Source: Deinococcus lacus (GTDB lineage Bacteria > Deinococcota > Deinococci > Deinococcales > Deinococcaceae). Taken from it: DNA of 14,774 bases. The stretch lies in assembly GCF_042661385.1 (NCBI RefSeq), contig NZ_JBHSWD010000004.1:1-14774 (forward strand). The letters are read 5' to 3'. A model generated the notes under the pieces. The model had not been told where the DNA came from and searched no databases. It saw only the letters and a list, made by a program, of their open reading frames with translations. The position numbers and the translations under genes were made by a program. Positions 1 through 14,616 of this stretch are shown in pieces (within the stretch, counting starts at the first letter, position 1; each line of letters opens with the position of its first letter).

Positions 1-1635
1 ATCGGCTCTCTGCCTGCTCAGGCCCAGCCGTCTGGCGGCGGCATGGCTGGCCGTATCGCTGGCGCAGTCCGCGCGGCTGGTAGTGATGCGCTCGCCGGAC
101 TCGGCAAGGCCACGCCGGGCAATTTAGCCGGTATGGCTGGCGGCAGGATTAATTTTCCTGCTGCTGGCAAATTTTTTGTTCGCGGGGGACTGTGGGCGTT
201 GGCAGGTAGCCTAGTTTCGGACGCTATTAGTGATTGCATTGCTAGTAGCGAATGCCGTGGCGAGGTTGCTGACTGGTTCATGGGCCGTAATGAAACAGGG
301 GGTTGGGAATATGAGTTACCTACAGTAATTATTGAAATGAATGAATGCGGATATATTGGATATACACCTTTTGATAAGAAGCTGGCTGGTGATGCTAATA
401 ATCCTCTTATTATTAAGTATCGTGATTATAAATATGAAGTTGTGGGGGTAGGGAAATCTAGATATGATATTCCTGTTACAGAGACTACAAAAATTGATAA
501 TTTTGTTGCAAACTATAAAAGAGATAGGGCGATACAGTTAAATAAGGGGGTATGCGGGCGGAACAAAACTCTTTCTGAGTTGTCTCCTGGCGCAAAGTCA
601 CAGATAATAGAGGCAATAGCAAATTATATTACTAATAATCCAGAGAAAGCGCGGCCATACCTAGAAAAGCCTGTTAACGATAATGAATGGGCTGACAGTC
701 CTTTTGAACGGCCTGATTTAGATACTGACGCTGACGGCTACACTGACGGCGATGAGGCAGGCAGCGGCAGCAATCCAGACGATCCCGATAGTGTGCCTGA
801 AAAACCGTCCGATAAAGATGGGGACGGTGTTCCTGACAAAGACGATGACGATGATGATAATGACGGCATTCCTGATAAGGATGACTCTGCGCCAAATGAT
901 CCCGATTCCGGCGGGCCAGACTCTGACGGAGACGGCAAATCTGACGCAGTGGATACTGATGATGACAATGACGGTATTCCGGACTCTAAGGATGATGATG
1001 ATGATGATGATGGCATCCCAGATGACTGTGAAGATGCCGAGAATCCTGAAGAGTGTGCCGCTGCTGATGATGATGACGGCGATAAGCCGTGTGAAGAAGG
1101 CCAAGAAAAAGGCGAAAACGGCGAGTGTGCGCCTCCAAAAGATGATGGATGTCCAGAAGGCGAGGAAAAGGGCGAGGATGGCGAGTGCGCCGCGCCTCCT
1201 GATGATGGAGAGTGCCCTGAAGGCCAGGAGAAAGGAAAAGACGGAAAATGTGCGCCTCCTCCTCCTGGCTCCTCGCCTCCTGATGACTCGTGCGGAACAT
1301 TTAGTTACAAGCGCCTGCTGGCCTATCCTGGTTCCTTTGTCAAAGACTTGTTTGTGCCTTGCGCTCCTGTAAAAGAAATGTTCACGCCATTAATTGCAGT
1401 GGCTAAAACTAAATTTCCATTTTCTGTTGCTATGAATCTGCGCGGCTGGTTCCATGTTGGCGGCGGTGGCGGCGGAAATGGCAGCGATTTGCCTGACTCT
1501 ATTGGTCCGATTCCATTAACATGGACGTTTTTAACTCCGCTCTGGACAACGATTAAAACGCTTGTTGGCGTTGCGCTTTACGCTGCTTTTGGCTACTGGC
1601 TTCTAGATCGTTTCACTCCGAGGACTCAGATATGA
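1..1635 (+). CDS. gIII-like minor coat/adsorption protein, 5' end outside window (about 17 codons missing; full length about 561 aa judged from copy 2 start)
   Basis: The frame is open from base 1 and matches the copy-2 N-terminus (MNAVARRAAAFGLSALLIGSLPAQA signal-peptide-like). It is the largest structural ORF and sits directly upstream of the gVI-like and gI-like genes. It has a Gly/Ala-rich N-terminus, an acidic repeat core, a G6 linker and a C-terminal TM anchor (TLVGVALYAAFGYWLL). Its stop overlaps the next start (ATGA at 1632-1635). Confidence 0.7.
   Translation: MGSLPAQAQPSGGGMAGRIAGAVRAAGSDALAGLGKATPGNLAGMAGGRINFPAAGKFFVRGGLWALAGSLVSDAISDCIASSECRGEVADWFMGRNETGGWEYELPTVIIEMNECGYIGYTPFDKKLAGDANNPLIIKYRDYKYEVVGVGKSRYDIPVTETTKIDNFVANYKRDRAIQLNKGVCGRNKTLSELSPGAKSQIIEAIANYITNNPEKARPYLEKPVNDNEWADSPFERPDLDTDADGYTDGDEAGSGSNPDDPDSVPEKPSDKDGDGVPDKDDDDDDNDGIPDKDDSAPNDPDSGGPDSDGDGKSDAVDTDDDNDGIPDSKDDDDDDDGIPDDCEDAENPEECAAADDDDGDKPCEEGQEKGENGECAPPKDDGCPEGEEKGEDGECAAPPDDGECPEGQEKGKDGKCAPPPPGSSPPDDSCGTFSYKRLLAYPGSFVKDLFVPCAPVKEMFTPLIAVAKTKFPFSVAMNLRGWFHVGGGGGGNGSDLPDSIGPIPLTWTFLTPLWTTIKTLVGVALYAAFGYWLLDRFTPRTQI
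1090..1290 (+). repeat. Three tandem 60-63 nt coding repeats inside the gIII-like gene (C-x11-C, then CA(A)PP..DDG)
   Basis: The translation reads CEEGQEKGENGECAPPKDDG / CPEGEEKGEDGECAAPPDDGE / CPEGQEKGKDGKCAPPPPGSSPPDDSC. Repeat starts are at 1090, 1150 and 1213. Confidence 0.8.
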
Positions 1636-1874
1636 TTCTCTCTGCGCTGATTGAAGTTGTGAATTTGTTGATCATGGCTGCTCTGATGCTATTTCCAGAG
1701 TGGGAACCTCCTGTGGATTCGCCTAGCTGGACGGCACTTAGTGCAGCTAACATTGTTCTGCCACTAGACACCTGGTCCATGCTCATGGGCGTAACAATCG
1801 GCGTGATGGGTGCTGCTCTCGGCGTCTGGGTTATTAAATTGGCTGTCAATTTAATTAGGGGGTCGGGCGCATGA
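1632..1874 (+). CDS. gVI-like small multi-TM virion/assembly protein (80 aa)
   Basis: The protein is hydrophobic and lies between the gIII-like and gI-like genes. It has ATGA overlaps at both ends (1632-1635 and 1871-1874), suggesting translational coupling. Confidence 0.55.
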   Translation: MILSALIEVVNLLIMAALMLFPEWEPPVDSPSWTALSAANIVLPLDTWSMLMGVTIGVMGAALGVWVIKLAVNLIRGSGA

Positions 1875-2770
1875 TTGGAAACTTACTAAAGCGCGCAGCA
1901 CCAACGCACTTTGCTACTAAATATGAGCTAGGCCATGACCGCGCCTTTCATTTGTTAGAGGCTCGGCGCGGGCGCGGGAAGTCCTACACAATGGCTTATT
2001 GGGCGCTGAAAGTTGCACGTAAGAAAGTGCCAGTTGTGGCAAACTTCCATTTTAATCATGACTGGCTGGCGCGGCAACTCGTTAAAGACAAAGTATTTAA
2101 GTCTATAGACGAAGCATTAGACTGGTGCGCTGAGAATATCCGCTTCGTTAATACTTGGGACGAAATTATGCTTTCTTATGACTGCCTAATCCTGTTGGAT
2201 GAGGTCAATAGGCTCTTTGACTCTCAGGACCGCTCTAAGGATGAAAAAGCTCCAAAAGTTGTTTTTGAATGGCTGCAACTCTCGCGCCGTAATCGTATTA
2301 CGCTCGTGTTTGCCGCTCAATCTATGGACTGGTTAACTCCGCGTGTCCGTCAATTGTTTGACAATCTCTGGCGTGCTAAGAAAGAGCTTTATCCAAAAGG
2401 CAGGCTACGCGGCCAAATTAAACAGTTTTGGCTGTATGGTGCTGATCCGTGGTCTAAAGGTTTAAATGCTGGCGTAGTACGCGATGCTGACTATAAAGCG
2501 ACGATTCCATTTGATGCCGCTATTTTTAGGCTTTACGACACGTTTGAGCGTATACAGGCTATTCCGAATGAGTCTAGTTTTGCTCGTTTCTACGATATTT
2601 ATGAATATCAGTTAGCAAATGGGATTGTTCCGCCGCCGCCTGCTCCGCGCCCGCGTGGCCTAACTCATGCTGAGTATGAGGCGCTGTGGGAGGACTGCCA
2701 CGCGCGTGTGGCCGAACCAGTGAGCGCCGTGCGCGAACAGGTGAGGCCTCGTGTGCGTGAGGTGGTATGA
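1871..2770 (+). CDS. Zot/pI-like P-loop morphogenesis ATPase (299 aa), no TM segment detectable
   Basis: Walker A-like ARRGRGKS and Walker B-like CLILLDEV are present. The gene is in the canonical position after gIII/gVI. The C-terminus is Pro/Arg-rich (PPPPAPRPRG) rather than hydrophobic. Confidence 0.6.
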   Translation: MIGNLLKRAAPTHFATKYELGHDRAFHLLEARRGRGKSYTMAYWALKVARKKVPVVANFHFNHDWLARQLVKDKVFKSIDEALDWCAENIRFVNTWDEIMLSYDCLILLDEVNRLFDSQDRSKDEKAPKVVFEWLQLSRRNRITLVFAAQSMDWLTPRVRQLFDNLWRAKKELYPKGRLRGQIKQFWLYGADPWSKGLNAGVVRDADYKATIPFDAAIFRLYDTFERIQAIPNESSFARFYDIYEYQLANGIVPPPPAPRPRGLTHAEYEALWEDCHARVAEPVSAVREQVRPRVREVV

Positions 2771-2855
2771 TGTCGCCACTGAGGAATAAAAAACGTGCTC
2801 AACGGGGTGATGGCCCGGAGCACTTCCCCAGATATAGCACATCAGGAGCCTGAGT

Positions 2856-4307
2856 GTGATGGACTCAGACGCAACTGGCAGCATACGCATAGTTAACGAG
2901 GTTATAGACTCTCTGGACGTTCGCGTTTCGCGGCATATGCAACCTAGTCGCTGGATGCTGGACCAGGCGCGGGTTTGGCGTCTCTATATTGAGCAATGGG
3001 AGTCTGCGACGACTGAGCCGCTGTACTGTCAACTAGGGGAGATTGGGAGTTTCCGGCTGAAGGTCGGCGGGCGGCCACCATATGAGTTCGTGTTGTTCAA
3101 TCCGCAGATTTGCGACATCCGGATTTGGAATCCTGGCCGTTGGGATGGCAAAGCTGCTGGGCAGACTGGTCAGTTGTTTGTCTCGTTCCGCTCCGTCTTT
3201 CTCCAGCGCTACGGGCTGCACGGTGCGCGGCGCATTATCCGCGAGCTGGTGGAGTTGCTCGGCGTCTCCGATCCGGCCAACGACCACGGGCCGGAGTTTG
3301 ATCGTATTTCACGGATTGACCTGGCGGTGGATACTCAGGAGGAGCGTGGCATGCTCTGGGCCGACCTGGACGCGTTCGTCTGTCGCTCCCGCATCCTGGA
3401 TACTTGGACCACGGTCACGCCGCAGGACATGACCAATATGCTAGAGCGCTCCATGCTAGAGGAGCTATTCCCGATGGACTCCGATCCGCATTTGCCGACA
3501 GTGCGTGCGCTGGCTCGTGCGGCGTCTGCCTGCATCACGGATTTCACACGTCAAGCCCTGGTGGACCTGGAACAGTATGGAGAGGCTAATCTCTCTCGTG
3601 TTGTTACCAAGAGTAGAACACCGCAAACCATTTATTTTGGCCGTTTTGGTTCAGAACTCTACGCACGCCGATATAATAAACTCGGTTCACTGGCTATACA
3701 GAATAAGCTGTATATGTTAGAGATTTGGCAGCAAAACGGTTGGGATTGCGAGAGTCCTGTTATCCGTACTGAGTTTAGCATGTCCGGCGATTTCCTAAAA
3801 AACTATATTCTGCCAGAAACATCAACCGGCGAAAATCTAGAAATAGATGCCCGTGATCTTGATTTAATAGAAGTAAGGATACCTTATATCTGGTCCTACT
3901 TAACTAAGAAGTGGCTCCGCTTCACTGAGCCTAAAGGACAGAATGTTAAGCGCTGGAAAATTAACAGTGTTTGGGCTGAGATTCAGACCGCTTTCAGTGC
4001 TTACAAGATGCCTTTCGGCGTCCGTGATCTTTCGCGTAGTATTCCGAGAGAGGACATCCATCTAGTTAAACAATCGCGCGGCTGTAATGTGACGGTTGCG
4101 GCGCTTAGATTTGCTGCCAATCCAGCACAAAAACCAACAGACGTGCTTGCTGATCTATTTGAAAGTATGATTAATGCTATGGAGGCTGATGGTTTCCTTG
4201 AAGATGTAGAGAACAGAATGCTAGAATTAGGCATAGATGCCTATACAGATACGTGTCTAACATCTATGTTCAGAGCTGAGAAAATGAAGGAGGGTTATGG
4301 AAGTTAA
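2856..4307 (+). CDS. Rolling-circle replication initiator, Rep_trans (RstA/pT181 RepC-like) family, 483 aa
   Basis: Motifs recalled from the Rep_trans family are present: RIDLAVD, TIYFGRFGSELYARRYNK and VIRTEFSMSG. An AGGAG at 2844-2848 precedes the GTG 2856 / ATG 2859 start. Confidence 0.75.
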   Translation: MMDSDATGSIRIVNEVIDSLDVRVSRHMQPSRWMLDQARVWRLYIEQWESATTEPLYCQLGEIGSFRLKVGGRPPYEFVLFNPQICDIRIWNPGRWDGKAAGQTGQLFVSFRSVFLQRYGLHGARRIIRELVELLGVSDPANDHGPEFDRISRIDLAVDTQEERGMLWADLDAFVCRSRILDTWTTVTPQDMTNMLERSMLEELFPMDSDPHLPTVRALARAASACITDFTRQALVDLEQYGEANLSRVVTKSRTPQTIYFGRFGSELYARRYNKLGSLAIQNKLYMLEIWQQNGWDCESPVIRTEFSMSGDFLKNYILPETSTGENLEIDARDLDLIEVRIPYIWSYLTKKWLRFTEPKGQNVKRWKINSVWAEIQTAFSAYKMPFGVRDLSRSIPREDIHLVKQSRGCNVTVAALRFAANPAQKPTDVLADLFESMINAMEADGFLEDVENRMLELGIDAYTDTCLTSMFRAEKMKEGYGS

Positions 4308-4533
4308 AAAGTCTAATGTGAAGAGAGGGTATTTATTTCTTGTCTTTATCTTTTTCATCGCATTACAAATAGACCGTCATAAAGTTTTGCTTAGTAACTT
4401 AATTACAGATATTTATGATGCATATCCTGTAACTTTATCGTTACTTATTATTGTGTTGGGCATGATACTGTTTATTTCGTCTGGGAGAGTTTTCCGCCAG
4501 TATCTCAAAGATATGCTCTATGGTGATTTGTAG
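4297..4533 (+). CDS. 78-aa two-TM membrane protein of unknown function (AT-rich accessory gene)
   Basis: A strong SD (AAGGAGG) sits about 4288-4294, and the start overlaps the Rep stop. There are two hydrophobic segments (YLFLVFIFFIAL, VTLSLLIIVLGMILFI). GC is about 32% by hand count. Confidence 0.6.
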   Translation: MEVKKSNVKRGYLFLVFIFFIALQIDRHKVLLSNLITDIYDAYPVTLSLLIIVLGMILFISSGRVFRQYLKDMLYGDL

Positions 4534-4549
4534 ATTTTTAGGGGGTTGT

Positions 4550-4753
4550 ATGCAGACACAAAATTGGATTTGTCCAGAGTGCGGTGAGTTAGTAGATTTT
4601 GTGCTAGTGCAGCGGTTTGGCGGCGGTTTCTGCGCCTATGAGTGTCCGCGTTGTACCGTTGGCTCCTCCCTCCCTGACTGGTTGGAACACAATCCCGACC
4701 AGCCACCAGGCGCTCACCCTGAGTTACGTGAACCTGGTCCATCCATTCTCTAG
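4550..4753 (+). CDS. 67-aa zinc-ribbon-like protein (CPEC...CPRC), unknown function
   Basis: The ATG at 4550 is preceded by AGGGGG, so it is preferred over the 4520 start given by the ORF track. The CxxC-x19-CxxxCxxC spacing fits a zinc ribbon. A terminator-like hairpin follows. Confidence 0.5.
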   Translation: MQTQNWICPECGELVDFVLVQRFGGGFCAYECPRCTVGSSLPDWLEHNPDQPPGAHPELREPGPSIL

Positions 4754-4778
4754 GACCATTGACCATTTCCCCCCTTTT

Positions 4779-4805
4779 CCCCCCTGCAGTTTCGCGGGGG
4801 TTTTT
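4779..4805 (+). terminator. Terminator-like hairpin: C6 ... G5 stem followed by T5
   Basis: The sequence is CCCCCCTGCAGTTTCGCGGGGGTTTTT, immediately after the zinc-ribbon ORF. The C-run is 6 nt here and 5 nt in copy 2. Confidence 0.4.
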
Positions 4806-4937
4806 GCTGTCTGGCGCGGCGCTGCCGGAGTTCCCCAGCCTGGATAACAAGGGGGTGCTAATTACCACGCCGCTCGCGTAGGCTCCTGGGTTGCTTTGAC
4901 CTGGTGCATCGCTGACAGGTGTCCAGGGCGCTAGACC

Positions 4938-5005
4938 TTAATCAATGCTGTCCCGTTCTCTGGTTGACGGCCTGGGCAGGCTGATTTTTGGCTAGACATT
5001 GATTA
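4938..5005. repeat. Inverted repeat TAATCAATG / CATTGATTA flanked by GCTAGAC direct repeats
   Basis: The 9-bp arms are at 4939-4947 and 4997-5005. GCTAGAC occurs at about 4931 and 4991. Confidence 0.6.
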
Positions 5006-5071
5006 GGGGCTAGCGGGCGCACAGCGCCGGACCCTGGACGCCGTACGCAACGCTAAAATGTGCGGGCGTAG

Positions 5072-5107
5072 CCCGGAGGAGTGGCCGTTTTTTGCCAGTC
5101 CTCCGGG
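5072..5107. other. Long intergenic hairpin (9 + 4 bp stem, T6-containing loop)
   Basis: The sequence reads CCCGGAGGA-G-TGGC-CGTTTTTT-GCCA-G-TCCTCCGGG. It is a candidate ssDNA structural signal. Confidence 0.55.
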
Positions 5108-5196
5108 CCTGCCCAGCGGCGAGCGTGTCTGTTCTGCCTGGCTCTGGCTGGCCTACTGTTGGCGCATGGGGGCAGCCGCTACCGTCTCCGACGTTG

Positions 5197-5534
5197 CTGG
5201 TCGCGAAGCGTCAATTCCGGTTAGGCTTCTCCGGGCATGCAGGTGACGGGTCAAGGGTTTAGGTTGTCAAGGGTGGCCGAAGGCCAGGCCGCGAAGCGGG
5301 CCGCGAAGCGCCCTTGACAAGCCGCGAAGCGCCCTTGACGCGGCACAGACGGAGTTTTTCGCTGAGTGCGCTATCTGGTCGCGAAGCGTCAATTCCGGCT
5401 AGGCTTCTCCGGGCATGCAGGTGACGGGTCAAGGGTTTAGGTTGTCAAGGGTGGCCGAAGGCCAGGCCGCGAAGCGGGCCGCGGAGCGCCCTTGACAAGC
5501 CGCGAAGCGCCCTTGACGCGGCACAAACGGAGTT
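5197..5534. repeat. Direct duplication, period 178 bp (about 160 bp conserved per copy: 5197-5356 and 5375-5534), with internal iterons and nested inverted repeats; candidate origin region
   Basis: The two copies differ at only a few positions (ccggTtagg vs ccggCtagg, gcgAagc vs gcgGagc, cacaGac vs cacaAac). Each contains 2x GTCAAGGG, 2x CCCTTGAC, GGCCGAAGGCC and 4 GCG(A/G)AGC motifs. Confidence 0.85.
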
Positions 5535-5639
5535 CTGTCGCTACTTGCGCCGCTCCATCATCCATCCAGCTCCAACAGCCACGCCGCACAGAAACGGCCA
5601 GATGCTGTCTAGGATGCTCTGCCACAGTATCTCTAGCAT

Positions 5640-5903
5640 TTAGCGTTCTCCTGTGCTATGTTCCGAGCATAATAACCTAATATGTTTTTTATCTCGCTCA
5701 ACTAGGCCCTGTTGCCGCAACTCGCGTAGGCCGTCCTTAAACGTGCCGTATGAGATGCCTACGGCGTCGGCTAGCTCCTCCTGGTTTGTGTATTCCACCT
5801 CTCCCCTGGCGATCAGAAACCAGTAGACGGCGGCGGCGCTGGGCTTCACAAATAGCAGGCTATCCCCTGCCCCCTTGTATTCTTGTAATTGGATGATTAT
5901 CAT
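5640..5903 (-). CDS. 87-aa winged-helix/HTH transcriptional regulator (putative phage repressor, analogous in position to CTXphi RstR)
   Basis: It is the only convincing minus-strand gene and is divergent from the structural operon. It has an HTH-like segment NQEELADAVGISYGTFKDGLRELRQQGLVER. Confidence 0.6.
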   Translation of the reverse strand: MIIIQLQEYKGAGDSLLFVKPSAAAVYWFLIARGEVEYTNQEELADAVGISYGTFKDGLRELRQQGLVERDKKHIRLLCSEHSTGER

Positions 5904-5920
5904 CTAACTGGATGATATCC
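5875..5920. promoter_or_regulatory. Divergent promoter/operator region
   Basis: On the + strand, TTGTAT (5875-5880) is followed after 17 nt by TATCAT (5898-5903). On the - strand there is a TATCAT (complement of 5912-5917). The palindrome GATGAT-T-ATCATC (5892-5904) overlaps the regulator start codon. TGGATGAT is directly repeated at 5890 and 5909. Confidence 0.35.
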
Positions 5921-5942
5921 AACTAAACCAAAGGTGGTGGAA

Positions 5943-6239
5943 ATGCGAGCGATATACAGAATGTTGAAAAGGCGAGAATATCCCGGCAGAGACGGTACAC
6001 AGAAGACGGCACACAACCTGGAAGTGACGATTCCTGAGGTGGGGACGGGGGATATTTACCTTCCAGAGCACAAATACACCGAGTTTCGCGCACTCGCGTT
6101 GAGCGACGGCGATCAGATTGAACTGGACCTGGACGCTAACGTTTTTCGCGGCCAGATTAATTTCGGCGTCGCCTCCATCCGCCGCTCTGCTGTAGCTGCT
6201 CCGGCACCAGTGGCCGCTGCTGTAGGTCGTGCTGGCTAA
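5943..6239 (+). CDS. 98-aa protein in the gV position (putative ssDNA-binding protein)
   Basis: It is the first gene of the rightward operon. An SD (AAGGTGG, 5931-5937) precedes the ATG at 5943; the ORF track starts at GTG 5934. The call rests on size and position only. Confidence 0.4.
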   Translation: MRAIYRMLKRREYPGRDGTQKTAHNLEVTIPEVGTGDIYLPEHKYTEFRALALSDGDQIELDLDANVFRGQINFGVASIRRSAVAAPAPVAAAVGRAG

Positions 6240-6526
6240 TGGAAACCGAGGCGCTGCGGGCGGCTATTGAGGCCAACACTGAGCAGGTACGTCAACAGAC
6301 TGAGCAGGTCCGTCTGATGATACAGGTCCTGTTAGTGCTCCTGGTCCTCGGAGTCGCGGGATTGGGGACCCGTTTTGGAGTCCTCGCGGGTGGGGGCGCT
6401 GATGGTCGAGCAGGAAACGCTAAACGTGGTGCGCGTGCTGGCTGGCGCTATCCAAACTCTGGCGGTTGTCGCCTGTTCGGTGGCGGTGCCAGTGACGTGG
6501 TTTCGCGTAGGTCGCCGGGCGGTTAA
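6239..6526 (+). CDS. 95-aa ORF: coiled N-terminus plus one TM; the C-terminal half looks non-coding (Gly/Arg low complexity)
   Basis: A TAATG overlap links it to the upstream gene. METEALRAAIEANTEQVRQQTEQVRLMIQVLLVLLVLGVAGLG is protein-like, but the sequence after the G5 run at 6392-6396 is not. Confidence 0.4.
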   Translation: METEALRAAIEANTEQVRQQTEQVRLMIQVLLVLLVLGVAGLGTRFGVLAGGGADGRAGNAKRGARAGWRYPNSGGCRLFGGGASDVVSRRSPGG

Positions 6527-6536
6527 CTCGCTGTGA
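6402..6536 (+). CDS. 44-aa small TM protein in the +1 frame (below ORF-track cutoff)
   Basis: Hand translation gives MVEQETLNVVRVLAGAIQTLAVVACSVAVPVTWFRVGRRAVNSL. It has a hydrophobic core and a basic tail, and looks more protein-like than the overlapping frame. Confidence 0.35.
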   Translation: MVEQETLNVVRVLAGAIQTLAVVACSVAVPVTWFRVGRRAVNSL

Positions 6537-6633
6537 TCTGGGTTTGCGTCGGTTTCCTTCTCCTGCTCATGTTCGGTGGTCGTGGCTGAGGTGCGGGCGC
6601 GGAGCAGTGCGACGCGCCACGTAGAGGACATTT

Positions 6634-6732
6634 ATGGAAGAGATTCTGAAAATACTTCTACCGCTCTTAGCTGTGACTTTCGCTTCTTCCACGCTTTGCA
6701 GCGTGTTGCATCTGGTCGGCAATCATGACTGA
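6634..6732 (+). CDS. 32-aa hydrophobic protein (gVII/gIX-like minor coat candidate)
   Basis: Hand translation gives MEEILKILLPLLAVTFASSTLCSVLHLVGNHD. A GAGGA SD lies upstream, and the ORF overlaps the next ORF in the ATGACTGA context. Confidence 0.45.
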   Translation: MEEILKILLPLLAVTFASSTLCSVLHLVGNHD

Positions 6733-6865
6733 TTGGTCTGCTGCCGCTCCTGCTATGCAGGCCGCTGCTGTTCCCCTAATAGGCATGCTCGTCGCCGCTC
6801 TCGTGGTCATGGCTGCCGCATTCTGGGTCCGCGTGTTGACTGGAAATCATCAGGATGATGATTAA
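6725..6865 (+). CDS. 46-aa single-TM protein (gVII/gIX-like minor coat candidate)
   Basis: Hand translation gives MTDWSAAAPAMQAAAVPLIGMLVAALVVMAAAFWVRVLTGNHQDDD. It lies immediately upstream of the major coat gene. Confidence 0.45.
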   Translation: MTDWSAAAPAMQAAAVPLIGMLVAALVVMAAAFWVRVLTGNHQDDD

Positions 6866-6876
6866 ACGGAGACTGT

Positions 6877-7116
6877 ATGATGAAAACCACTGTTATCCGC
6901 CCTATAGCTCCCGCTCCTTCTCGCTCTGACGTGGCATTTCGTTATGCCGCGCCTCTGATTTTGCTCGCTGGCTCTACGCTGGCTGGCGCACAGGATCTGT
7001 CATTTGATGTAAGTGGCCTGCAAGGCCAAGTCATGACGATCCTTGGCGTTGGCGTGGCGATTGCTATCGCGTTTGCGCTGTTCAAGGTCGGCAAACGCGC
7101 TACTAGCCGCATGTAA
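6877..7116 (+). CDS. Major coat protein precursor (79 aa; long leader, predicted mature about 41 aa)
   Basis: The leader ends in ..LLAGSTLAGA. The predicted mature part QDLSFDVSGLQGQVMTILGVGVAIAIAFALFKVGKRATSRM has an acidic N-terminus, a hydrophobic core and 4 basic C-terminal residues. A strong terminator follows. The architecture resembles the Pf1 coat precursor. Confidence 0.75.
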   Translation: MMKTTVIRPIAPAPSRSDVAFRYAAPLILLAGSTLAGAQDLSFDVSGLQGQVMTILGVGVAIAIAFALFKVGKRATSRM

Positions 7117-7131
7117 TAGCCGCGTAGTGGT

Positions 7132-7172
7132 AGCAGGCTGCACGGTTTTATGCTGTGTAGCCTGCTTCTTTT
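7132..7172 (+). terminator. Rho-independent terminator after the major coat gene
   Basis: A 12-bp stem AGCAGGCTGCAC / GTGTAGCCTGCT (one G-T pair) has an 11-nt loop and is followed by TCTTTT. Confidence 0.7.
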
Positions 7173-7181
7173 AGGAGAAAC

Positions 7182-7307
7182 ATGGAAGAAATTGCGAAGC
7201 TGTTTCAGTTGTTTGCTATGGCTGCCGGAGTATTAGTGGTGGTCGGCATCATAGGCATAATCATCTATTTCCGCTGGCGTGCGGAAGGACAAGAGAGGGG
7301 GATGTAA
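7182..7307 (+). CDS. 41-aa single-TM protein
   Basis: An AGGAGA SD lies upstream. Hand translation gives MEEIAKLFQLFAMAAGVLVVVGIIGIIIYFRWRAEGQERGM. Confidence 0.5.
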   Translation: MEEIAKLFQLFAMAAGVLVVVGIIGIIIYFRWRAEGQERGM

Positions 7308-7441: not shown

Positions 7442-9122
7442 ATGCGGTGGCGCGGCGTGCTGCCGCATTTGGACTCTCCGCGCTACTGATCGGCTCTCTG
7501 CCTGCTCAGGCCCAGCCGTCTGGCGGCGGCATGGCTGGCCGTATCGCTGGCGCAGTCCGCGCGGCTGGTAGTGATGCGCTCGCCGGACTCGGCAAGGCCA
7601 CGCCGGGCAATTTAGCCGGTATGGCTGGCGGCAGGATTAATTTTCCTGCTGCTGGCAAATTTTTTGTTCGCGGGGGACTGTGGGCGTTGGCAGGTAGCCT
7701 AGTTTCGGACGCTATTAGTGATTGCATTGCTAGTAGCGAATGCCGTGGCGAGGTTGCTGACTGGTTCATGGGCCGTAATGAAACAGGGGTTGGGAATATG
7801 AGTTACCTACAGTAATTATTGAAATGAATGAATGCGGATATATTGGATATACACCTTTTGATAAGAAGCTGGCTGGTGATGCTAATAATCCTCTTATTAT
7901 TAAGTATCGTGATTATAAATATGAAGTTGTGGGGGTAGGGAAATCTAGATATGATATTCCTGTTACAGAGACTACAAAAATTGATAATTTTGTTGCAAAC
8001 TATAAAAGAGATAGGGCGATACAGTTAAATAAGGGGGTATGCGGGCGGAACAAAACTCTTTCTGAGTTGTCTCCTGGCGCAAAGTCACAGATAATAGAGG
8101 CAATAGCAAATTATATTACTAATAATCCAGAGAAAGCGCGGCCATACCTAGAAAAGCCTGTTAACGATAATGAATGGGCTGACAGTCCTTTTGAACGGCC
8201 TGATTTAGATACTGACGCTGACGGCTACACTGACGGCGATGAGGCAGGCAGCGGCAGCAATCCAGACGATCCCGATAGTGTGCCTGAAAAACCGTCCGAT
8301 AAAGATGGGGACGGTGTTCCTGACAAAGACGATGACGATGATGATAATGACGGCATTCCTGATAAGGATGACTCTGCGCCAAATGATCCCGATTCCGGCG
8401 GGCCAGACTCTGACGGAGACGGCAAATCTGACGCAGTGGATACTGATGATGACAATGACGGTATTCCGGACTCTAAGGATGATGATGATGATGATGATGG
8501 CATCCCAGATGACTGTGAAGATGCCGAGAATCCTGAAGAGTGTGCCGCTGCTGATGATGATGACGGCGATAAGCCGTGTGAAGAAGGCCAAGAAAAAGGC
8601 GAAAACGGCGAGTGTGCGCCTCCAAAAGATGATGGATGTCCAGAAGGCGAGGAAAAGGGCGAGGATGGCGAGTGCGCCGCGCCTCCTGATGATGGAGAGT
8701 GCCCTGAAGGCCAGGAGAAAGGAAAAGACGGAAAATGTGCGCCTCCTCCTCCTGGCTCCTCGCCTCCTGATGACTCGTGCGGAACATTTAGTTACAAGCG
8801 CCTGCTGGCCTATCCTGGTTCCTTTGTCAAAGACTTGTTTGTGCCTTGCGCTCCTGTAAAAGAAATGTTCACGCCATTAATTGCAGTGGCTAAAACTAAA
8901 TTTCCATTTTCTGTTGCTATGAATCTGCGCGGCTGGTTCCATGTTGGCGGCGGTGGCGGCGGAAATGGCAGCGATTTGCCTGACTCTATTGGTCCGATTC
9001 CATTAACATGGACGTTTTTAACTCCGCTCTGGACAACGATTAAAACGCTTGTTGGCGTTGCGCTTTACGCTGCTTTTGGCTACTGGCTTCTAGATCGTTT
9101 CACTCCGAGGACTCAGATATGA
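7438..9122 (+). pseudogene. Copy 2 of the gIII-like gene, frameshifted (125-aa 5' ORF 7438..7815 plus 3' remainder ending 9122)
   Basis: The G4 run at 7786-7789 corresponds to G5 at 298-302 in copy 1. Translation is identical to copy 1 on both sides of the shift. No SD precedes the internal ATG at 7824. Confidence 0.7.
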
Positions 9123-9406
9123 TTCTCTCTGCGCTGATTGAAGTTGTGAATTTGTTGATCATGGCTGCTCTGATGCTATTTCCAGAGTGGGAACCTCCTG
9201 TGGATTCGCCTAGCTGGACGGCACTTAGTGCAGCTAACATTGTTCTGCCACTAGACACCTGGTCCATGCTCATGGGCGTAACAATCGGCGTGATGGGTGC
9301 TGCTCTCGGCGTCTGGGTTATTAAATTGGCTGTCAATTTAATTAGGGGTCGGGCGCATGATTGGAAACTTACTAAAGCGCGCAGCACCAACGCACTTTGC
9401 TACTAA
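9119..9406 (+). CDS. Copy 2 gVI-like protein with altered, extended C-terminus (95 aa)
   Basis: The G4 run at 9345-9348 corresponds to G5 at 1858-1862. The ATGA coupling is lost and the ORF now overlaps the gI-like gene by 50 nt. Confidence 0.5.
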   Translation: MILSALIEVVNLLIMAALMLFPEWEPPVDSPSWTALSAANIVLPLDTWSMLMGVTIGVMGAALGVWVIKLAVNLIRGRAHDWKLTKARSTNALCY

Positions 9407-10256
9407 ATATGAGCTAGGCCATGACCGCGCCTTTCATTTGTTAGAGGCTCGGCGCGGGCGCGGGAAGTCCTACACAATGGCTTATTGGGCGCTGAAAGTT
9501 GCACGTAAGAAAGTGCCAGTTGTGGCAAACTTCCATTTTAATCATGACTGGCTGGCGCGGCAACTCGTTAAAGACAAAGTATTTAAGTCTATAGACGAAG
9601 CATTAGACTGGTGCGCTGAGAATATCCGCTTCGTTAATACTTGGGACGAAATTATGCTTTCTTATGACTGCCTAATCCTGTTGGATGAGGTCAATAGGCT
9701 CTTTGACTCTCAGGACCGCTCTAAGGATGAAAAAGCTCCAAAAGTTGTTTTTGAATGGCTGCAACTCTCGCGCCGTAATCGTATTACGCTCGTGTTTGCC
9801 GCTCAATCTATGGACTGGTTAACTCCGCGTGTCCGTCAATTGTTTGACAATCTCTGGCGTGCTAAGAAAGAGCTTTATCCAAAAGGCAGGCTACGCGGCC
9901 AAATTAAACAGTTTTGGCTGTATGGTGCTGATCCGTGGTCTAAAGGTTTAAATGCTGGCGTAGTACGCGATGCTGACTATAAAGCGACGATTCCATTTGA
10001 TGCCGCTATTTTTAGGCTTTACGACACGTTTGAGCGTATACAGGCTATTCCGAATGAGTCTAGTTTTGCTCGTTTCTACGATATTTATGAATATCAGTTA
10101 GCAAATGGGATTGTTCCGCCGCCGCCTGCTCCGCGCCCGCGTGGCCTAACTCATGCTGAGTATGAGGCGCTGTGGGAGGACTGCCACGCGCGTGTGGCCG
10201 AACCAGTGAGCGCCGTGCGCGAACAGGTGAGGCCTCGTGTGCGTGAGGTGGTATGA
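9357..10256 (+). CDS. Copy 2 Zot/pI-like ATPase
   Basis: The translation is identical to 1871..2770. Confidence 0.6.
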   Translation: MIGNLLKRAAPTHFATKYELGHDRAFHLLEARRGRGKSYTMAYWALKVARKKVPVVANFHFNHDWLARQLVKDKVFKSIDEALDWCAENIRFVNTWDEIMLSYDCLILLDEVNRLFDSQDRSKDEKAPKVVFEWLQLSRRNRITLVFAAQSMDWLTPRVRQLFDNLWRAKKELYPKGRLRGQIKQFWLYGADPWSKGLNAGVVRDADYKATIPFDAAIFRLYDTFERIQAIPNESSFARFYDIYEYQLANGIVPPPPAPRPRGLTHAEYEALWEDCHARVAEPVSAVREQVRPRVREVV

Positions 10257-10341
10257 TGTCGCCACTGAGGAATAAAAAACGTGCTCAACGGGGTGATGGC
10301 CCGGAGCACTTCCCCAGATATAGCACATCAGGAGCCTGAGT

Positions 10342-11793
10342 GTGATGGACTCAGACGCAACTGGCAGCATACGCATAGTTAACGAGGTTATAGACTCTCT
10401 GGACGTTCGCGTTTCGCGGCATATGCAACCTAGTCGCTGGATGCTGGACCAGGCGCGGGTTTGGCGTCTCTATATTGAGCAATGGGAGTCTGCGACGACT
10501 GAGCCGCTGTACTGTCAACTAGGGGAGATTGGGAGTTTCCGGCTGAAGGTCGGCGGGCGGCCACCATATGAGTTCGTGTTGTTCAATCCGCAGATTTGCG
10601 ACATCCGGATTTGGAATCCTGGCCGTTGGGATGGCAAAGCTGCTGGGCAGACTGGTCAGTTGTTTGTCTCGTTCCGCTCCGTCTTTCTCCAGCGCTACGG
10701 GCTGCACGGTGCGCGGCGCATTATCCGCGAGCTGGTGGAGTTGCTCGGCGTCTCCGATCCGGCCAACGACCACGGGCCGGAGTTTGATCGTATTTCACGG
10801 ATTGACCTGGCGGTGGATACTCAGGAGGAGCGTGGCATGCTCTGGGCCGACCTGGACGCGTTCGTCTGTCGCTCCCGCATCCTGGATACTTGGACCACGG
10901 TCACGCCGCAGGACATGACCAATATGCTAGAGCGCTCCATGCTAGAGGAGCTATTCCCGATGGACTCCGATCCGCATTTGCCGACAGTGCGTGCGCTGGC
11001 TCGTGCGGCGTCTGCCTGCATCACGGATTTCACACGTCAAGCCCTGGTGGACCTGGAACAGTATGGAGAGGCTAATCTCTCTCGTGTTGTTACCAAGAGT
11101 AGAACACCGCAAACCATTTATTTTGGCCGTTTTGGTTCAGAACTCTACGCACGCCGATATAATAAACTCGGTTCACTGGCTATACAGAATAAGCTGTATA
11201 TGTTAGAGATTTGGCAGCAAAACGGTTGGGATTGCGAGAGTCCTGTTATCCGTACTGAGTTTAGCATGTCCGGCGATTTCCTAAAAAACTATATTCTGCC
11301 AGAAACATCAACCGGCGAAAATCTAGAAATAGATGCCCGTGATCTTGATTTAATAGAAGTAAGGATACCTTATATCTGGTCCTACTTAACTAAGAAGTGG
11401 CTCCGCTTCACTGAGCCTAAAGGACAGAATGTTAAGCGCTGGAAAATTAACAGTGTTTGGGCTGAGATTCAGACCGCTTTCAGTGCTTACAAGATGCCTT
11501 TCGGCGTCCGTGATCTTTCGCGTAGTATTCCGAGAGAGGACATCCATCTAGTTAAACAATCGCGCGGCTGTAATGTGACGGTTGCGGCGCTTAGATTTGC
11601 TGCCAATCCAGCACAAAAACCAACAGACGTGCTTGCTGATCTATTTGAAAGTATGATTAATGCTATGGAGGCTGATGGTTTCCTTGAAGATGTAGAGAAC
11701 AGAATGCTAGAATTAGGCATAGATGCCTATACAGATACGTGTCTAACATCTATGTTCAGAGCTGAGAAAATGAAGGAGGGTTATGGAAGTTAA
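10342..11793 (+). CDS. Copy 2 Rep_trans-like replication initiator
   Basis: The translation is identical to 2856..4307. Confidence 0.75.
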   Translation: MMDSDATGSIRIVNEVIDSLDVRVSRHMQPSRWMLDQARVWRLYIEQWESATTEPLYCQLGEIGSFRLKVGGRPPYEFVLFNPQICDIRIWNPGRWDGKAAGQTGQLFVSFRSVFLQRYGLHGARRIIRELVELLGVSDPANDHGPEFDRISRIDLAVDTQEERGMLWADLDAFVCRSRILDTWTTVTPQDMTNMLERSMLEELFPMDSDPHLPTVRALARAASACITDFTRQALVDLEQYGEANLSRVVTKSRTPQTIYFGRFGSELYARRYNKLGSLAIQNKLYMLEIWQQNGWDCESPVIRTEFSMSGDFLKNYILPETSTGENLEIDARDLDLIEVRIPYIWSYLTKKWLRFTEPKGQNVKRWKINSVWAEIQTAFSAYKMPFGVRDLSRSIPREDIHLVKQSRGCNVTVAALRFAANPAQKPTDVLADLFESMINAMEADGFLEDVENRMLELGIDAYTDTCLTSMFRAEKMKEGYGS

Positions 11794-12019
11794 AAAGTCT
11801 AATGTGAAGAGAGGGTATTTATTTCTTGTCTTTATCTTTTTCATCGCATTACAAATAGACCGTCATAAAGTTTTGCTTAGTAACTTAATTACAGATATTT
11901 ATGATGCATATCCTGTAACTTTATCGTTACTTATTATTGTGTTGGGCATGATACTGTTTATTTCGTCTGGGAGAGTTTTCCGCCAGTATCTCAAAGATAT
12001 GCTCTATGGTGATTTGTAG
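11783..12019 (+). CDS. Copy 2 78-aa two-TM protein
   Basis: The translation is identical to 4297..4533. Confidence 0.6.
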   Translation: MEVKKSNVKRGYLFLVFIFFIALQIDRHKVLLSNLITDIYDAYPVTLSLLIIVLGMILFISSGRVFRQYLKDMLYGDL

Positions 12020-12035
12020 ATTTTTAGGGGGTTGT

Positions 12036-12239
12036 ATGCAGACACAAAATTGGATTTGTCCAGAGTGCGGTGAGTTAGTAGATTTTGTGCTAGTGCAGCG
12101 GTTTGGCGGCGGTTTCTGCGCCTATGAGTGTCCGCGTTGTACCGTTGGCTCCTCCCTCCCTGACTGGTTGGAACACAATCCCGACCAGCCACCAGGCGCT
12201 CACCCTGAGTTACGTGAACCTGGTCCATCCATTCTCTAG
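12036..12239 (+). CDS. Copy 2 zinc-ribbon-like protein
   Basis: The sequence is identical to 4550..4753. Confidence 0.5.
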   Translation: MQTQNWICPECGELVDFVLVQRFGGGFCAYECPRCTVGSSLPDWLEHNPDQPPGAHPELREPGPSIL

Positions 12240-12264
12240 GACCATTGACCATTTCCCCCCTTTT

Positions 12265-12290
12265 CCCCCTGCAGTTTCGCGGGGGTTTTT
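12265..12290 (+). terminator. Copy 2 terminator-like hairpin (C5 ... G5 then T5)
   Basis: It matches 4779..4805 with one fewer C, which makes the C/G stem arms equal in length. Confidence 0.4.
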
Positions 12291-12556
12291 GCTGTCTGGC
12301 GCGGCGCTGCCGGAGTTCCCCAGCCTGGATAACAAGGGGGTGCTAATTACCACGCCGCTCGCGTAGGCTCCTGGGTTGCTTTGACCTGGTGCATCGCTGA
12401 CAGGTGTCCAGGGCGCTAGACCTTAATCAATGCTGTCCCGTTCTCTGGTTGACGGCCTGGGCAGGCTGATTTTTGGCTAGACATTGATTAGGGGCTAGCG
12501 GGCGCACAGCGCCGGACCCTGGACGCCGTACGCAACGCTAAAATGTGCGGGCGTAG

Positions 12557-12592
12557 CCCGGAGGAGTGGCCGTTTTTTGCCAGTCCTCCGGG
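12557..12592. other. Copy 2 long intergenic hairpin
   Basis: The sequence is identical to 5072..5107. Confidence 0.55.
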
Positions 12593-12681
12593 CCTGCCCA
12601 GCGGCGAGCGTGTCTGTTCTGCCTGGCTCTGGCTGGCCTACTGTTGGCGCATGGGGGCAGCCGCTACCGTCTCCGACGTTG

Positions 12682-13019
12682 CTGGTCGCGAAGCGTCAAT
12701 TCCGGTTAGGCTTCTCCGGGCATGCAGGTGACGGGTCAAGGGTTTAGGTTGTCAAGGGTGGCCGAAGGCCAGGCCGCGAAGCGGGCCGCGAAGCGCCCTT
12801 GACAAGCCGCGAAGCGCCCTTGACGCGGCACAGACGGAGTTTTTCGCTGAGTGCGCTATCTGGTCGCGAAGCGTCAATTCCGGCTAGGCTTCTCCGGGCA
12901 TGCAGGTGACGGGTCAAGGGTTTAGGTTGTCAAGGGTGGCCGAAGGCCAGGCCGCGAAGCGGGCCGCGGAGCGCCCTTGACAAGCCGCGAAGCGCCCTTG
13001 ACGCGGCACAAACGGAGTT
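12682..13019. repeat. Copy 2 of the 178-bp-period direct duplication
   Basis: It is identical to 5197..5534, including the internal variant positions. Confidence 0.85.
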
Positions 13020-13124
13020 CTGTCGCTACTTGCGCCGCTCCATCATCCATCCAGCTCCAACAGCCACGCCGCACAGAAACGGCCAGATGCTGTCTAGGAT
13101 GCTCTGCCACAGTATCTCTAGCAT

Positions 13125-13388
13125 TTAGCGTTCTCCTGTGCTATGTTCCGAGCATAATAACCTAATATGTTTTTTATCTCGCTCAACTAGGCCCTGTTGC
13201 CGCAACTCGCGTAGGCCGTCCTTAAACGTGCCGTATGAGATGCCTACGGCGTCGGCTAGCTCCTCCTGGTTTGTGTATTCCACCTCTCCCCTGGCGATCA
13301 GAAACCAGTAGACGGCGGCGGCGCTGGGCTTCACAAATAGCAGGCTATCCCCTGCCCCCTTGTATTCTTGTAATTGGATGATTATCAT
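13125..13388 (-). CDS. Copy 2 wHTH regulator
   Basis: The translation is identical to 5640..5903. Confidence 0.6.
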   Translation of the reverse strand: MIIIQLQEYKGAGDSLLFVKPSAAAVYWFLIARGEVEYTNQEELADAVGISYGTFKDGLRELRQQGLVERDKKHIRLLCSEHSTGER

Positions 13389-13405
13389 CTAACTGGATGA
13401 TATCC
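13360..13405. promoter_or_regulatory. Copy 2 divergent promoter/operator region
   Basis: The sequence is identical to 5875..5920. Confidence 0.35.
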
Positions 13406-13427
13406 AACTAAACCAAAGGTGGTGGAA

Positions 13428-13724
13428 ATGCGAGCGATATACAGAATGTTGAAAAGGCGAGAATATCCCGGCAGAGACGGTACACAGAAGACGGCACACA
13501 ACCTGGAAGTGACGATTCCTGAGGTGGGGACGGGGGATATTTACCTTCCAGAGCACAAATACACCGAGTTTCGCGCACTCGCGTTGAGCGACGGCGATCA
13601 GATTGAACTGGACCTGGACGCTAACGTTTTTCGCGGCCAGATTAATTTCGGCGTCGCCTCCATCCGCCGCTCTGCTGTAGCTGCTCCGGCACCAGTGGCC
13701 GCTGCTGTAGGTCGTGCTGGCTAA
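13428..13724 (+). CDS. Copy 2 gV-position protein
   Basis: The sequence is identical to 5943..6239. Confidence 0.4.
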   Translation: MRAIYRMLKRREYPGRDGTQKTAHNLEVTIPEVGTGDIYLPEHKYTEFRALALSDGDQIELDLDANVFRGQINFGVASIRRSAVAAPAPVAAAVGRAG

Positions 13725-14011
13725 TGGAAACCGAGGCGCTGCGGGCGGCTATTGAGGCCAACACTGAGCAGGTACGTCAACAGACTGAGCAGGTCCGTCT
13801 GATGATACAGGTCCTGTTAGTGCTCCTGGTCCTCGGAGTCGCGGGATTGGGGACCCGTTTTGGAGTCCTCGCGGGTGGGGGCGCTGATGGTCGAGCAGGA
13901 AACGCTAAACGTGGTGCGCGTGCTGGCTGGCGCTATCCAAACTCTGGCGGTTGTCGCCTGTTCGGTGGCGGTGCCAGTGACGTGGTTTCGCGTAGGTCGC
14001 CGGGCGGTTAA
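13724..14011 (+). CDS. Copy 2 95-aa ORF
   Basis: The sequence is identical to 6239..6526. Confidence 0.4.
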   Translation: METEALRAAIEANTEQVRQQTEQVRLMIQVLLVLLVLGVAGLGTRFGVLAGGGADGRAGNAKRGARAGWRYPNSGGCRLFGGGASDVVSRRSPGG

Positions 14012-14021
14012 CTCGCTGTGA
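13887..14021 (+). CDS. Copy 2 44-aa +1-frame TM ORF
   Basis: The sequence is identical to 6402..6536. Confidence 0.35.
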   Translation: MVEQETLNVVRVLAGAIQTLAVVACSVAVPVTWFRVGRRAVNSL

Positions 14022-14118
14022 TCTGGGTTTGCGTCGGTTTCCTTCTCCTGCTCATGTTCGGTGGTCGTGGCTGAGGTGCGGGCGCGGAGCAGTGCGACGC
14101 GCCACGTAGAGGACATTT

Positions 14119-14350: not shown

Positions 14351-14361
14351 ACGGAGACTGT

Positions 14362-14601: not shown

Positions 14602-14616
14602 TAGCCGCGTAGTGGT

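Follow-up and report, generated by a model that had tools for sequence, protein, structure and literature searches.

The window analysed here, a 14,774-nt stretch of DNA (contig NZ_JBHSWD010000004.1 of Deinococcus lacus), carries an inovirus-like genome in which the intergenic region downstream of the replication initiator gene, rep, contains a 178-bp direct tandem repeat. Each repeat unit holds two nested copies of a hairpin element, here called E2, that also occurs in relatives of this genome and in replicons with unrelated initiators. We put at roughly even odds (a probability of about 0.5) the reading that E2 is a single-strand origin (sso), that is, an origin of complementary-strand synthesis read by the host, and that it has been amplified here to four stems beside a decayed ancestral copy. 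A different motif, E1, is the better candidate for the site at which Rep nicks the plus strand.

Self-comparison shows the window to be 1.97 head-to-tail copies of a single 7,487-nt genome, and the second occurrence of the repeats is therefore not independent evidence. The elements of the repeat region are as follows.

5197-5374, + strand: unit 1 of the 178-bp repeat, found by repeat search, BLAST and Tandem Repeats Finder (TRF).
5375-5542, + strand: unit 2, 97% identical to unit 1, with the last ~18 nt diverging.
12682-13027, + strand: the tandem repeat in the second genome copy (BLAST, TRF).
5243-5346, + strand: outer E2 hairpin of unit 1, with arms 5243-5257 and 5332-5346 and the core GTCAAGGG (5250-5257) and CCCTTGAC (5332-5339).
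5264-5320, + strand: inner E2 hairpin of unit 1, in which TTGTCAAGGG (5264-5273) pairs with CCCTTGACAA (5311-5320).
5421-5524, + strand: outer and inner E2 hairpins of unit 2, with outer arms 5421-5435 and 5510-5524 and inner arms 5442-5451 and 5489-5498.

A preliminary description of the locus had reported an intergenic 178-bp duplication, and this is what three methods return. The repeat search finds 98% identity between 5197-5356 and 5375-5534 at a spacing of 178, self-BLAST aligns 5197-5363 with 5375-5542 at 97% identity (4 mismatches and 1 gap), and TRF reports a period of 178, 1.9 copies and a score of 657. The structure is therefore a head-to-tail tandem repeat rather than two dispersed copies. 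The arrangement described within each unit, two GTCAAGGG boxes facing two CCCTTGAC boxes and recurring at +178, is also as found: the former start at 5250, 5266, 5428 and 5444 (16 nt apart within a unit) and the latter at 5311, 5332, 5489 and 5510 (21 nt apart). Each genome unit therefore has 8 such boxes, against 0.16 expected from first-order Markov simulations. TRF additionally detects internal duplications of 21 and 12 bp within the 178-bp unit. The two units differ at 5221 (T/C), 5306 (A/G) and 5348 (G/A), and their final ~18 nt diverge. No difference falls in any of the eight stem boxes, and the change at 5306 converts GCGAAGC to GCGGAGC with the GNA loop retained.

The stems enclose, and are accompanied by, mini-hairpins with a GNA triloop that the preliminary description does not mention, and of which each unit has four of the form CGCGAAGCG and one CCGAAGG apex (GGCCGAAGGCC). 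In unit 1 the apex (CCGAAGG at 5277) lies inside the inner hairpin together with GCGAAGC at 5291 and 5303; a further GCGAAGC sits between the inner and outer 3' arms at 5324 and another 5' of the hairpin at 5203. The corresponding mini-hairpins of unit 2 start at 5381, 5455, 5469, 5481 (GCGGAGC) and 5502. GCGNAGC occurs 12 times per genome unit on the + strand and 3 times on the - strand, where ~3.2 would be expected on each. Folded as + strand single-stranded DNA (ssDNA), a unit is predicted to form a two-tier hairpin of -47.8 kcal/mol (z -4.1), which is 10 kcal/mol better than the fold of the - strand (-37.4 kcal/mol, z -1.9), an asymmetry that is due to the GNA motifs. The ssDNA folding check that had been suggested thus returns the hairpin proposed, and the units can be regarded as ssDNA hairpin elements typical of the origin region of a filamentous phage. 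The cruciform proposed alongside it is unlikely in duplex DNA, because the perfect stems are only 8-10 bp long and the loops 37-74 nt.

Near-identity searches with the whole unit found no match among annotated phages, and BLAST of the unit against all fetched loci recovered the E2 core only; the flanks are unique, and no donor was found. In IMG/VR, an exact 19-mer search and a single-protein Rep search both came back empty. Comparative evidence comes from the relatives of Rep, whose gene is the following.

2856-4307, + strand: Rep, 483 aa, a rolling-circle replication (RCR) initiator with a Rep_trans (RepDE-like) fold (Pfam, PHROG, AlphaFold2, Foldseek).

The sequence-based assignment is weak for Pfam Rep_trans (E 0.014; 4cij, E 0.15) and firmer for a PHROG endonuclease family (E 1.5e-9). 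An AlphaFold2 model built from 37 homologues has a predicted local distance difference test (pLDDT) score of 84.7, and its only significant PDB matches in Foldseek are to the pT181-family initiator RepDE (4cwc/4cwe, E 5.8e-6, probability 1.0). We found 56 homologues, the best with 63% identity. They are carried by replicons of three types: circular inovirus-like contigs of 6.7-9.6 kb; circular contigs of 2.4-3.9 kb, rep being the sole long open reading frame (ORF) in both of those listed (L029 and L032); and plasmids of 1.75-1.79 kb from cultured Synechococcus elongatus. The family may therefore represent a continuum between phage and satellite or plasmid in cyanobacteria. The loci on which this comparison draws are L010, L013, L014, L016, L019-L021, L023, L029 (a dimer), L032-L034 and L049-L051. 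Labels of metagenome-assembled genomes (Oculatellaceae, Pseudanabaena) and a neighbouring PatA_N gene point to cyanobacteria, and the relatives with this Rep_trans-fold Rep are probably cyanobacterial. Among cultured phages, inoviruses of Thermus come nearest, with 25-27% identity in gene II.

The relatives that have E2, whose Reps are only 30-52% identical, carry it as one copy on the Rep strand. The core is canonical, and the copy intergenic, in L041/42, L043, L044-46, L047 and L037. Variants of the core are found in L006 (GTCAAGGT/ACCTTGAC) and in the AT-rich 2.4-2.6 kb circles L029, L034 and L032, which have either GTCAAGAG/CTCTTGAC, as in L034, or CTCAAGGG/CCCTTGAA; in L032 the outermost core pair is unpaired. 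A further candidate, L031:6132 (GCCAAGGG/CCCTTGGC), was discarded as a perfect terminator-like hairpin of an A-run and a T-run. In every E2 of the family the Rep strand carries one or more GCGNAGC within the hairpin and the opposite strand carries none there, and stems of at least 7 bp enclosing a GNA motif number 22 on the Rep strand against 3 on its complement. In an alignment of 13 instances, 82.7% of the cells of the stem are paired, compared with 66.7% after shuffling and 29-50% when the 3' partners are slid out of register. Twelve of the 16 pairs have changes on both sides, including the 8 flanking pairs, on which the selection of sites did not depend. The arms are separated by 22-75 nt, a distance too variable for a dimer site on duplex DNA, which argues that they pair with one another.

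The element is not universal. It is absent from L001, L002, L008, L040 and L048, although the last four have other hairpins, and L001 is the closest complete relative, a 6,734-nt circle with an intergenic region of 187 nt. The motif that does accompany Rep is E1, which is listed below with the neighbouring features of the same region.

4833-4857 (also 12318-12342), + strand: E1, CCCC-AGCCTGGATAACAA-GGGGG-TG, present in nearly every locus of the Rep family.
4781-4806, + strand: terminator of the + operon, a hairpin followed by a T-run, covarying in relatives.
4918-5042, + strand: H0, a 125-nt hairpin with basal stem GGTGTCCAGGG/CCCTGGACGCC and a 103-nt interior.
5066-5108, + strand: a GCGTAGC mini-hairpin, then a 15-bp hairpin GCCCGGAGGAGTGGC-(8)-GCCAGTCCTCCGGGC; relatives have a hairpin at the same position after E2.

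E1 lies ~400 nt upstream of the 178-bp repeats and can be written as CCCC-N-RTAACAAGGGGG, the family form being CCCC-N-RTAACAAGGGGGG(Y)G. Together with the terminator it forms a block that aligns with almost all close relatives. Its core, (A/G)TAACAAGGGG after a C-run, occurs on the Rep strand of almost every one of ~50 loci, which span a GC content of 37-69%, and it forms a short G/C hairpin with an invariant loop (GGATAACAA). In the clade of the window E1 is intergenic, and in distant clades it falls within the rep ORF at about codons 190-220, a stretch that is a low-confidence, disordered linker in the AlphaFold2 model; it is inside rep in two of the three S. elongatus plasmids fetched. Loci listed with E1 are L003, L010-L016, L019-L023, L029, L032, L034, L049 and L051. 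The nick site of a pT181-like system is expected to be a short hairpin with an invariant loop, co-inherited with its Rep_trans initiator. E1 is such a hairpin, inherited together with a Rep_trans-fold initiator and sometimes inside its gene, and it is therefore the more likely candidate, as judged from sequence comparison, for the plus-strand nick site, or double-strand origin (dso), of this Rep. Co-inheritance with Rep, as expected of a dso, is found for E1 and not for E2. As in the pT181-family origin, where the nick falls in the loop of the IR-II hairpin, E1 occurs with a Rep_trans-fold initiator and can lie inside rep; the two origins share no sequence similarity, and the nick site at E1 is putative.

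One Rep homologue lies outside any recognizable replicon of this kind. In a 91-kb chromosomal contig (GCA_965188805.1; L003:10001-11518) a lone copy with an internal E1 adjoins AbiTii-like and large unknown genes, with a PatA_N gene close by and no phage structural genes nearby. It may be a domesticated or remnant copy.

These comparisons also bear on the history of the repeats. Positions 5032-5153 of the window align with 7999-8126 of L041, beginning at the CCCTTGAC arm that forms the 3' side of the E2 of that relative. H0 is for this reason taken as the positional homologue of the single E2 of relatives, and the four canonical stems in the 178-bp repeats as additional copies. The H0 stem, GTCCAGGG/CCCTGGAC, carries a compensatory A>C / T>G change in an otherwise invariant core, and its interior has a 19-bp stem of its own (4929-4947 with 4997-5015). 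H0 with this compensatory core change thus sits beside four new canonical copies.

E2 also extends well beyond the Rep family. A search of IMG/VR with the pattern GTCAAGGG-N(0-30)-GCGNAGC-N(0-30)-CCCTTGAC gave 111 matches, against 8 for a control with the arms swapped. The carriers range from 31 to 71% GC, and in 110 of the 111 there is one copy; the remark in the preliminary description that two copies in one genome are unusual holds for these contigs as it does for the relatives. The flanks beyond the pattern are complementary at 50-87% out to ~18 nt, and ORFs of 100 aa or more make up 75% of the contigs concerned, yet 37 of 55 sites fall outside them. The largest ORFs of the carriers include Microviridae capsids (Phage_F, 8), Zot (2), and initiators of the types G2P (7), Rep_1 (3), Phage_CRI (2), GPA (2) and Rep_trans (1). 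Among these contigs there were no relatives of the window's Rep or Zot and no convincing E1, two bare matches to the E1 10-mer lacking the C-run and G-run context, and no protein family is constantly adjacent to E2 in them. The variety of Reps, the range of GC content, the non-coding sites and the want of a constant neighbour together argue for recognition by a host factor. The motif TANNNT is enriched 17-22 nt 3' of CCCTTGAC, in 28 of 103 sites (27%) against ~1 per position elsewhere, and this zone coincides with the end of the flank pairing.

Similar hairpins are found in two cultured systems. The 1.75-kb Synechococcus plasmid pIITB3_3 has an E2-like hairpin at 783-828, at the end of the rep frame (GCTGTCA-GCGTAGC...GCGAAGC-TGACAGC), with a shorter stem that lacks the AAGGG part of the core. 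In the Thermus phage OH3 (L163, NC_045425.1) positions 4030-4280, between genes III and VI, form one long hairpin (-82 kcal/mol, z -5.9) whose stem contains the E2-like core CCCCGTCAAGGC/GCCTTGACGGGG; the paper describing OH3 does not discuss an intergenic hairpin. An Rfam scan of the intergenic region of the window gave one chance-level match only (Pab160, E 0.63), and no description of E2 was found in Rfam or in the literature searched for the 8-mers and for conserved hairpins of Microviridae and Inoviridae.

The stability of the Rep strand, the covarying stem, the independence of Rep and of any other protein, the occurrence in two families of ssDNA phage and in RCR plasmids, and the patchy distribution all make E2 resemble an sso. 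It has the generic properties of one, being a strand-specific ssDNA structure in non-coding DNA that is independent of Rep type and exchangeable. It also shares the mini-hairpins of the G4-type origins, each unit having four GCGAAGC and one CCGAAGG, and its priming site would be putative. The contrast between a nearly universal E1 and a patchy E2 corresponds to the known one between a Rep-linked dso and an exchangeable sso. Each 178-bp unit comprises two nested E2 modules, each with the core 5'-GTCAAGGG...CCCTTGAC-3' and complementary flanks, and on the Rep-sense strand the stem encloses at least one very stable GNA-triloop mini-hairpin (GCGNAGC or CCGNAGG). If this phage resembles other inoviruses, that strand would be the one displaced and packaged. 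We propose that on the + ssDNA circle the hairpin would remain free of single-stranded DNA-binding protein (SSB) and offer a short duplex, and a host enzyme recognizing this duplex would lay down the primer for minus-strand synthesis. That enzyme could be RNA polymerase, given the invariant -35-like TTGAC in the 3' arm, or a primase, as at G4-type origins with mini-hairpins. Rep would act elsewhere, at E1 (4833-4857). The ancestral E2, now H0 (4918-5042), would have lost its canonical core, and the four canonical stems would have arisen in two stages, first by local duplication of stretches of 12, 16 and 21 bp and then, recently, by tandem duplication of 178 bp. The 178-bp duplication appears recent and may be selectively neutral, which would be compatible with an sso function; any benefit of amplification, like the priming function and the identity of the enzyme, is inferred.

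Several points weigh against this reading. The sso activity is inferred from anatomy and distribution, and E2 matches none of the described sso classes with which it was compared: for ssoA, the best match to RS_B has 4-6 mismatches in 17 and lies outside the intergenic region, on whose + strand there is no CS-6 (TAGCGT/A). Where a -10 hexamer would be expected, at +19, the E2 copies of the window read TTCGCT and TGTCGC, neither of which resembles one, and the stems of these copies reach only ~7 bp beyond the core; for these two reasons mimicry of an RNA polymerase promoter is not evident in this phage, and a primase-type mechanism is equally possible for it. Of 73 small IMG/VR contigs, 35 have most of their coding on the GNA strand and 29 are mixed, and in 9 the GNA strand is the non-coding one. 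These 9 of 44 coding-biased contigs, of which the microvirus L094 is an example, do not fit a simple action on the packaged + strand. As an observation on this minority, in L094:709-745 and in L076, L155 and L160 the GCGNAGC is on the non-coding strand, and the coding strand presents a stem, an AT-rich spacer, a hairpin with a non-GNA loop, and a stem. Some carriers, also a minority, are contigs that resemble double-stranded DNA phages or integrative and conjugative elements (ICEs). Finally, E2 appears to be dispensable or replaceable, because several complete relatives do without it, and for this phage in particular a packaging role stands as a rival, if an improbable one.

Such a role is the least improbable of the alternatives, and is suggested by the place of the repeats: the main intergenic region of this inovirus-like genome has a large, imperfect, strand-specific hairpin, comparable with the long intergenic hairpin of the cultured inovirus OH3, that could, in the manner of Ff hairpin A, tag the + ssDNA to be assembled, and its duplication could strengthen or double the signal. 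It is not easily reconciled with the presence of E2 in Microviridae, nor with the retention of the core across phage families with unrelated morphogenesis proteins and with no conserved protein beside it. E2 also occurs in related 2.4-2.6 kb circles in which rep is the only long ORF, and its counterpart in the Rep-only plasmid pIITB3_3, which has room for little besides rep, argues that packaging is not the general role. Other hairpins nearby, H0 and that at 5071-5108, could moreover serve as the signal; the hairpin at 5066-5108 may be such a signal, or else belong to the minus origin as a second part of it. Only slightly less credible, and still improbable, is a promoter for gene expression, in which the TTGAC boxes within CCCTTGAC would act as -35 elements, divergently in the duplex or from the hairpin on incoming ssDNA. 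The enrichment of TANNNT at +17 to +22 in IMG/VR copies is in keeping with this, as is the occurrence in some E2 carriers of DUF932, a family that we take to be typical of plasmid or ICE leading regions. Promoters acting on ssDNA are known from the leading regions of plasmids (PMC12672017). Against it, a duplex scan predicted no sigma-70-like promoter within 4500-6100, complementarity of the flanks would not be needed by a duplex promoter, and RNA started at the hairpin would enter the + operon in antisense direction and not the regulator gene, so that, with all genes on one strand, it could be only a primer or an antisense RNA.

The preliminary description had proposed the repeats as a Rep-dependent plus origin, either as initiation and termination sites or as iterated Rep-binding sites. 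We consider this improbable, despite the intergenic location downstream of rep, the repetition of the 8-mers in direct and inverted orientation, and the resemblance of CTTGA in E2 to CTTGAT, presumably the nick core of pC194 and phiX174-type origins. It is E1 that is co-inherited with Rep; E2 is patchy in the family, lies anywhere from ~75 to ~1300 nt from E1, is lacking in several relatives, the closest complete one among them, and co-occurs with at least 5 other Rep families in contigs that have neither this Rep nor E1. The spacing of its arms is, again, too variable for a dimer on duplex DNA. Relatives without the repeat, which the preliminary description had itself held would speak against an origin, do so for its Rep-dependent version, and the repeats are probably origin-type ssDNA elements that serve as a minus-strand origin rather than as a Rep-dependent one. 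Iterons were rejected, since relatives carry a single inverted pair with arms 22-75 nt apart, their regulators differ and the plasmids have none. So was an operator of the regulator: the regulator type varies (PadR or a Crp-like winged helix-turn-helix) and is absent from Rep-only plasmids, and a separate 19-bp repeat is already present in the divergent promoter region. An intrinsic terminator was excluded by the absence of a T-run after the stems on both strands; the terminator of the + operon is that at 4781-4806. A site of recombination or mobility, whether a hairpin substrate of a host recombinase in the manner of the CTXphi attP or a small mobile palindromic element, seems hardly more probable than an artefact. 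XerCD uses such substrates with CTXphi, as do integron integrases, and E2 is both patchy across unrelated replicons and locally amplified here. The best match to E. coli dif, which may not be the dif of the host, has 11 mismatches in 28 and falls outside the intergenic region; no copy integrated into host sequence was found, almost every genome has a single copy, and no recombinase is encoded in the window or constantly adjacent to E2. Least probable of all is that the duplication is an assembly artefact or a functionless product of slippage. The window is a concatemer with errors in homopolymer length and so imperfectly assembled, and the 97% identity of the units indicates a recent duplication in which 3 substitutions cannot show selection; yet neither collapse nor expansion during assembly would account for the substitutions between the units or for their different 3' ends, and the duplicated element is conserved far beyond this genome.

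Seen as an sso, E2 can be compared with several established systems. The intergenic region of Ff phages (M13/f1) comprises the plus origin, the packaging hairpin A, and hairpins B and C, which RNA polymerase reads as the minus origin. E2 occupies the same compartment of an inovirus genome and shares with the Ff region strand-specific hairpins, a -35-like sequence in the stem and a separation of the nicking element from that for minus-strand priming (here, putatively, E1 and E2). It differs in being accompanied by a Rep_trans-fold Rep and not gpII, in the absence of sequence similarity and of a recognizable -10, and in the tandem amplification of the module. The combination of TTGAC with TANNNT at the end of the flank pairing in IMG/VR copies also recalls the Ff minus origin. 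Frpo elements are ~300 nt in length, whereas E2 spans ~40-100 nt; the two have no sequence similarity, and the copies of the window have no -10. The same arrangement is nevertheless reminiscent of ssDNA promoters of the Frpo/ssi type on conjugative plasmids, in which a stem rebuilt from ssDNA restores the -35 box, with the -10 at its frayed base, and both transcription and priming take place on ssDNA, the RNA being able to serve as primer (PMC12672017); TANNNT lies at the right distance in 27% of the IMG/VR copies. With the ssoA of Gram-positive RCR plasmids E2 shares orientation-specific ssDNA hairpins, exchangeability between Reps and short conserved blocks, and some copies have TAGCG(A/T/G), resembling CS-6; unlike ssoA, as defined by the RS_B and CS-6 consensus sequences (PMC4598088), the window has no RS_B (at best 4 mismatches in 17, outside the intergenic region) and no + strand CS-6. 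The closest parallel in the mini-hairpins is with the primase-dependent complementary-strand origins of G4, St-1 and alpha3 and with RSF1010 ssiA, where hairpins of the viral ssDNA place GNA/GNNA mini-hairpins (GCGAAAGC, GCGTTAGC, CCGAAGG) at the site where primase starts; GCGNAGC mini-hairpins melt at 70-76 °C and are poorly bound by SSB (PMC13037366). The E2 of the window likewise has a CCGAAGG apex and GCGAAGC side hairpins. It differs from these origins in its conserved 8-bp basal stem and has no sequence similarity to them beyond the mini-hairpins, and priming by E2 is putative.

The surroundings of the repeats are in keeping with an inovirus-like genome. On the + strand are small ORFs, a 79-aa coat-like protein, a g3p-like protein, a Zot/pI ATPase (Pfam, E 1.5e-5), Rep, and two small ORFs directly after rep. 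The context given in the preliminary description, downstream of Rep (2856-4307) and beside a regulator, agrees with ours, the regulator being the following.

5640-5903, - strand: winged-helix regulator of 87 aa (HTH_Crp_2, E 6e-7), convergent with the + operon, its 3' end toward the repeats.

A 19-bp repeat, TAACTGGATGATTATCAAC, is present in 2.2 copies at 5886-5926. It lies in the gap of ~30 nt between the regulator gene (5640-5903, - strand) and a divergent 101-aa ORF (5934-6239, + strand), overlaps both annotated starts, and is a probable operator or divergent promoter region. The two genome copies, 1-7289 and 7489-14774, are 99.96% identical by self-BLAST, and differ solely in the lengths of three homopolymers, at 298/7785 (G5/G4), 1858/9344 (G5/G4) and 4779/12264 (C6/C5), the first two of which shift reading frames. 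The gene layouts of relatives suggest that G4 is right at 7785, giving separate ORFs of 125 and 432 aa. At 1858 they favour G5, with which an 80-aa ORF overlaps the start of Zot by ATGA. The 14,774 nt include no host DNA, and the simplest reading of the window is therefore that a circular genome was assembled as a concatemer.

Few ssDNA phages and plasmids have a minus-strand origin established by experiment, and in most metagenomic ssDNA genomes such origins are unannotated. We tentatively suggest, at somewhat less than an even chance, that E2 represents a class of complementary-strand origin or ssDNA promoter not described before, which host RNA polymerase or primase would read and which Microviridae, Inoviridae and small RCR plasmids would exchange as a cassette, and that the window shows this cassette renewed by amplification beside its decayed ancestral copy. 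E2 offers a short, searchable signature, an 8-bp stem core with a GNA mini-hairpin, that is found in more than 100 viral contigs with different Reps and in cyanobacterial plasmids. The separation of a probable nick site, E1, from a probable minus origin makes assays of the Rep origin easy to design. If E2 is indeed an sso, it would identify the strand and the site at which second-strand synthesis begins, would put to the test the proposal that mini-hairpins mark priming sites, and would provide a portable priming cassette for ssDNA vectors, cyanobacterial ones included.

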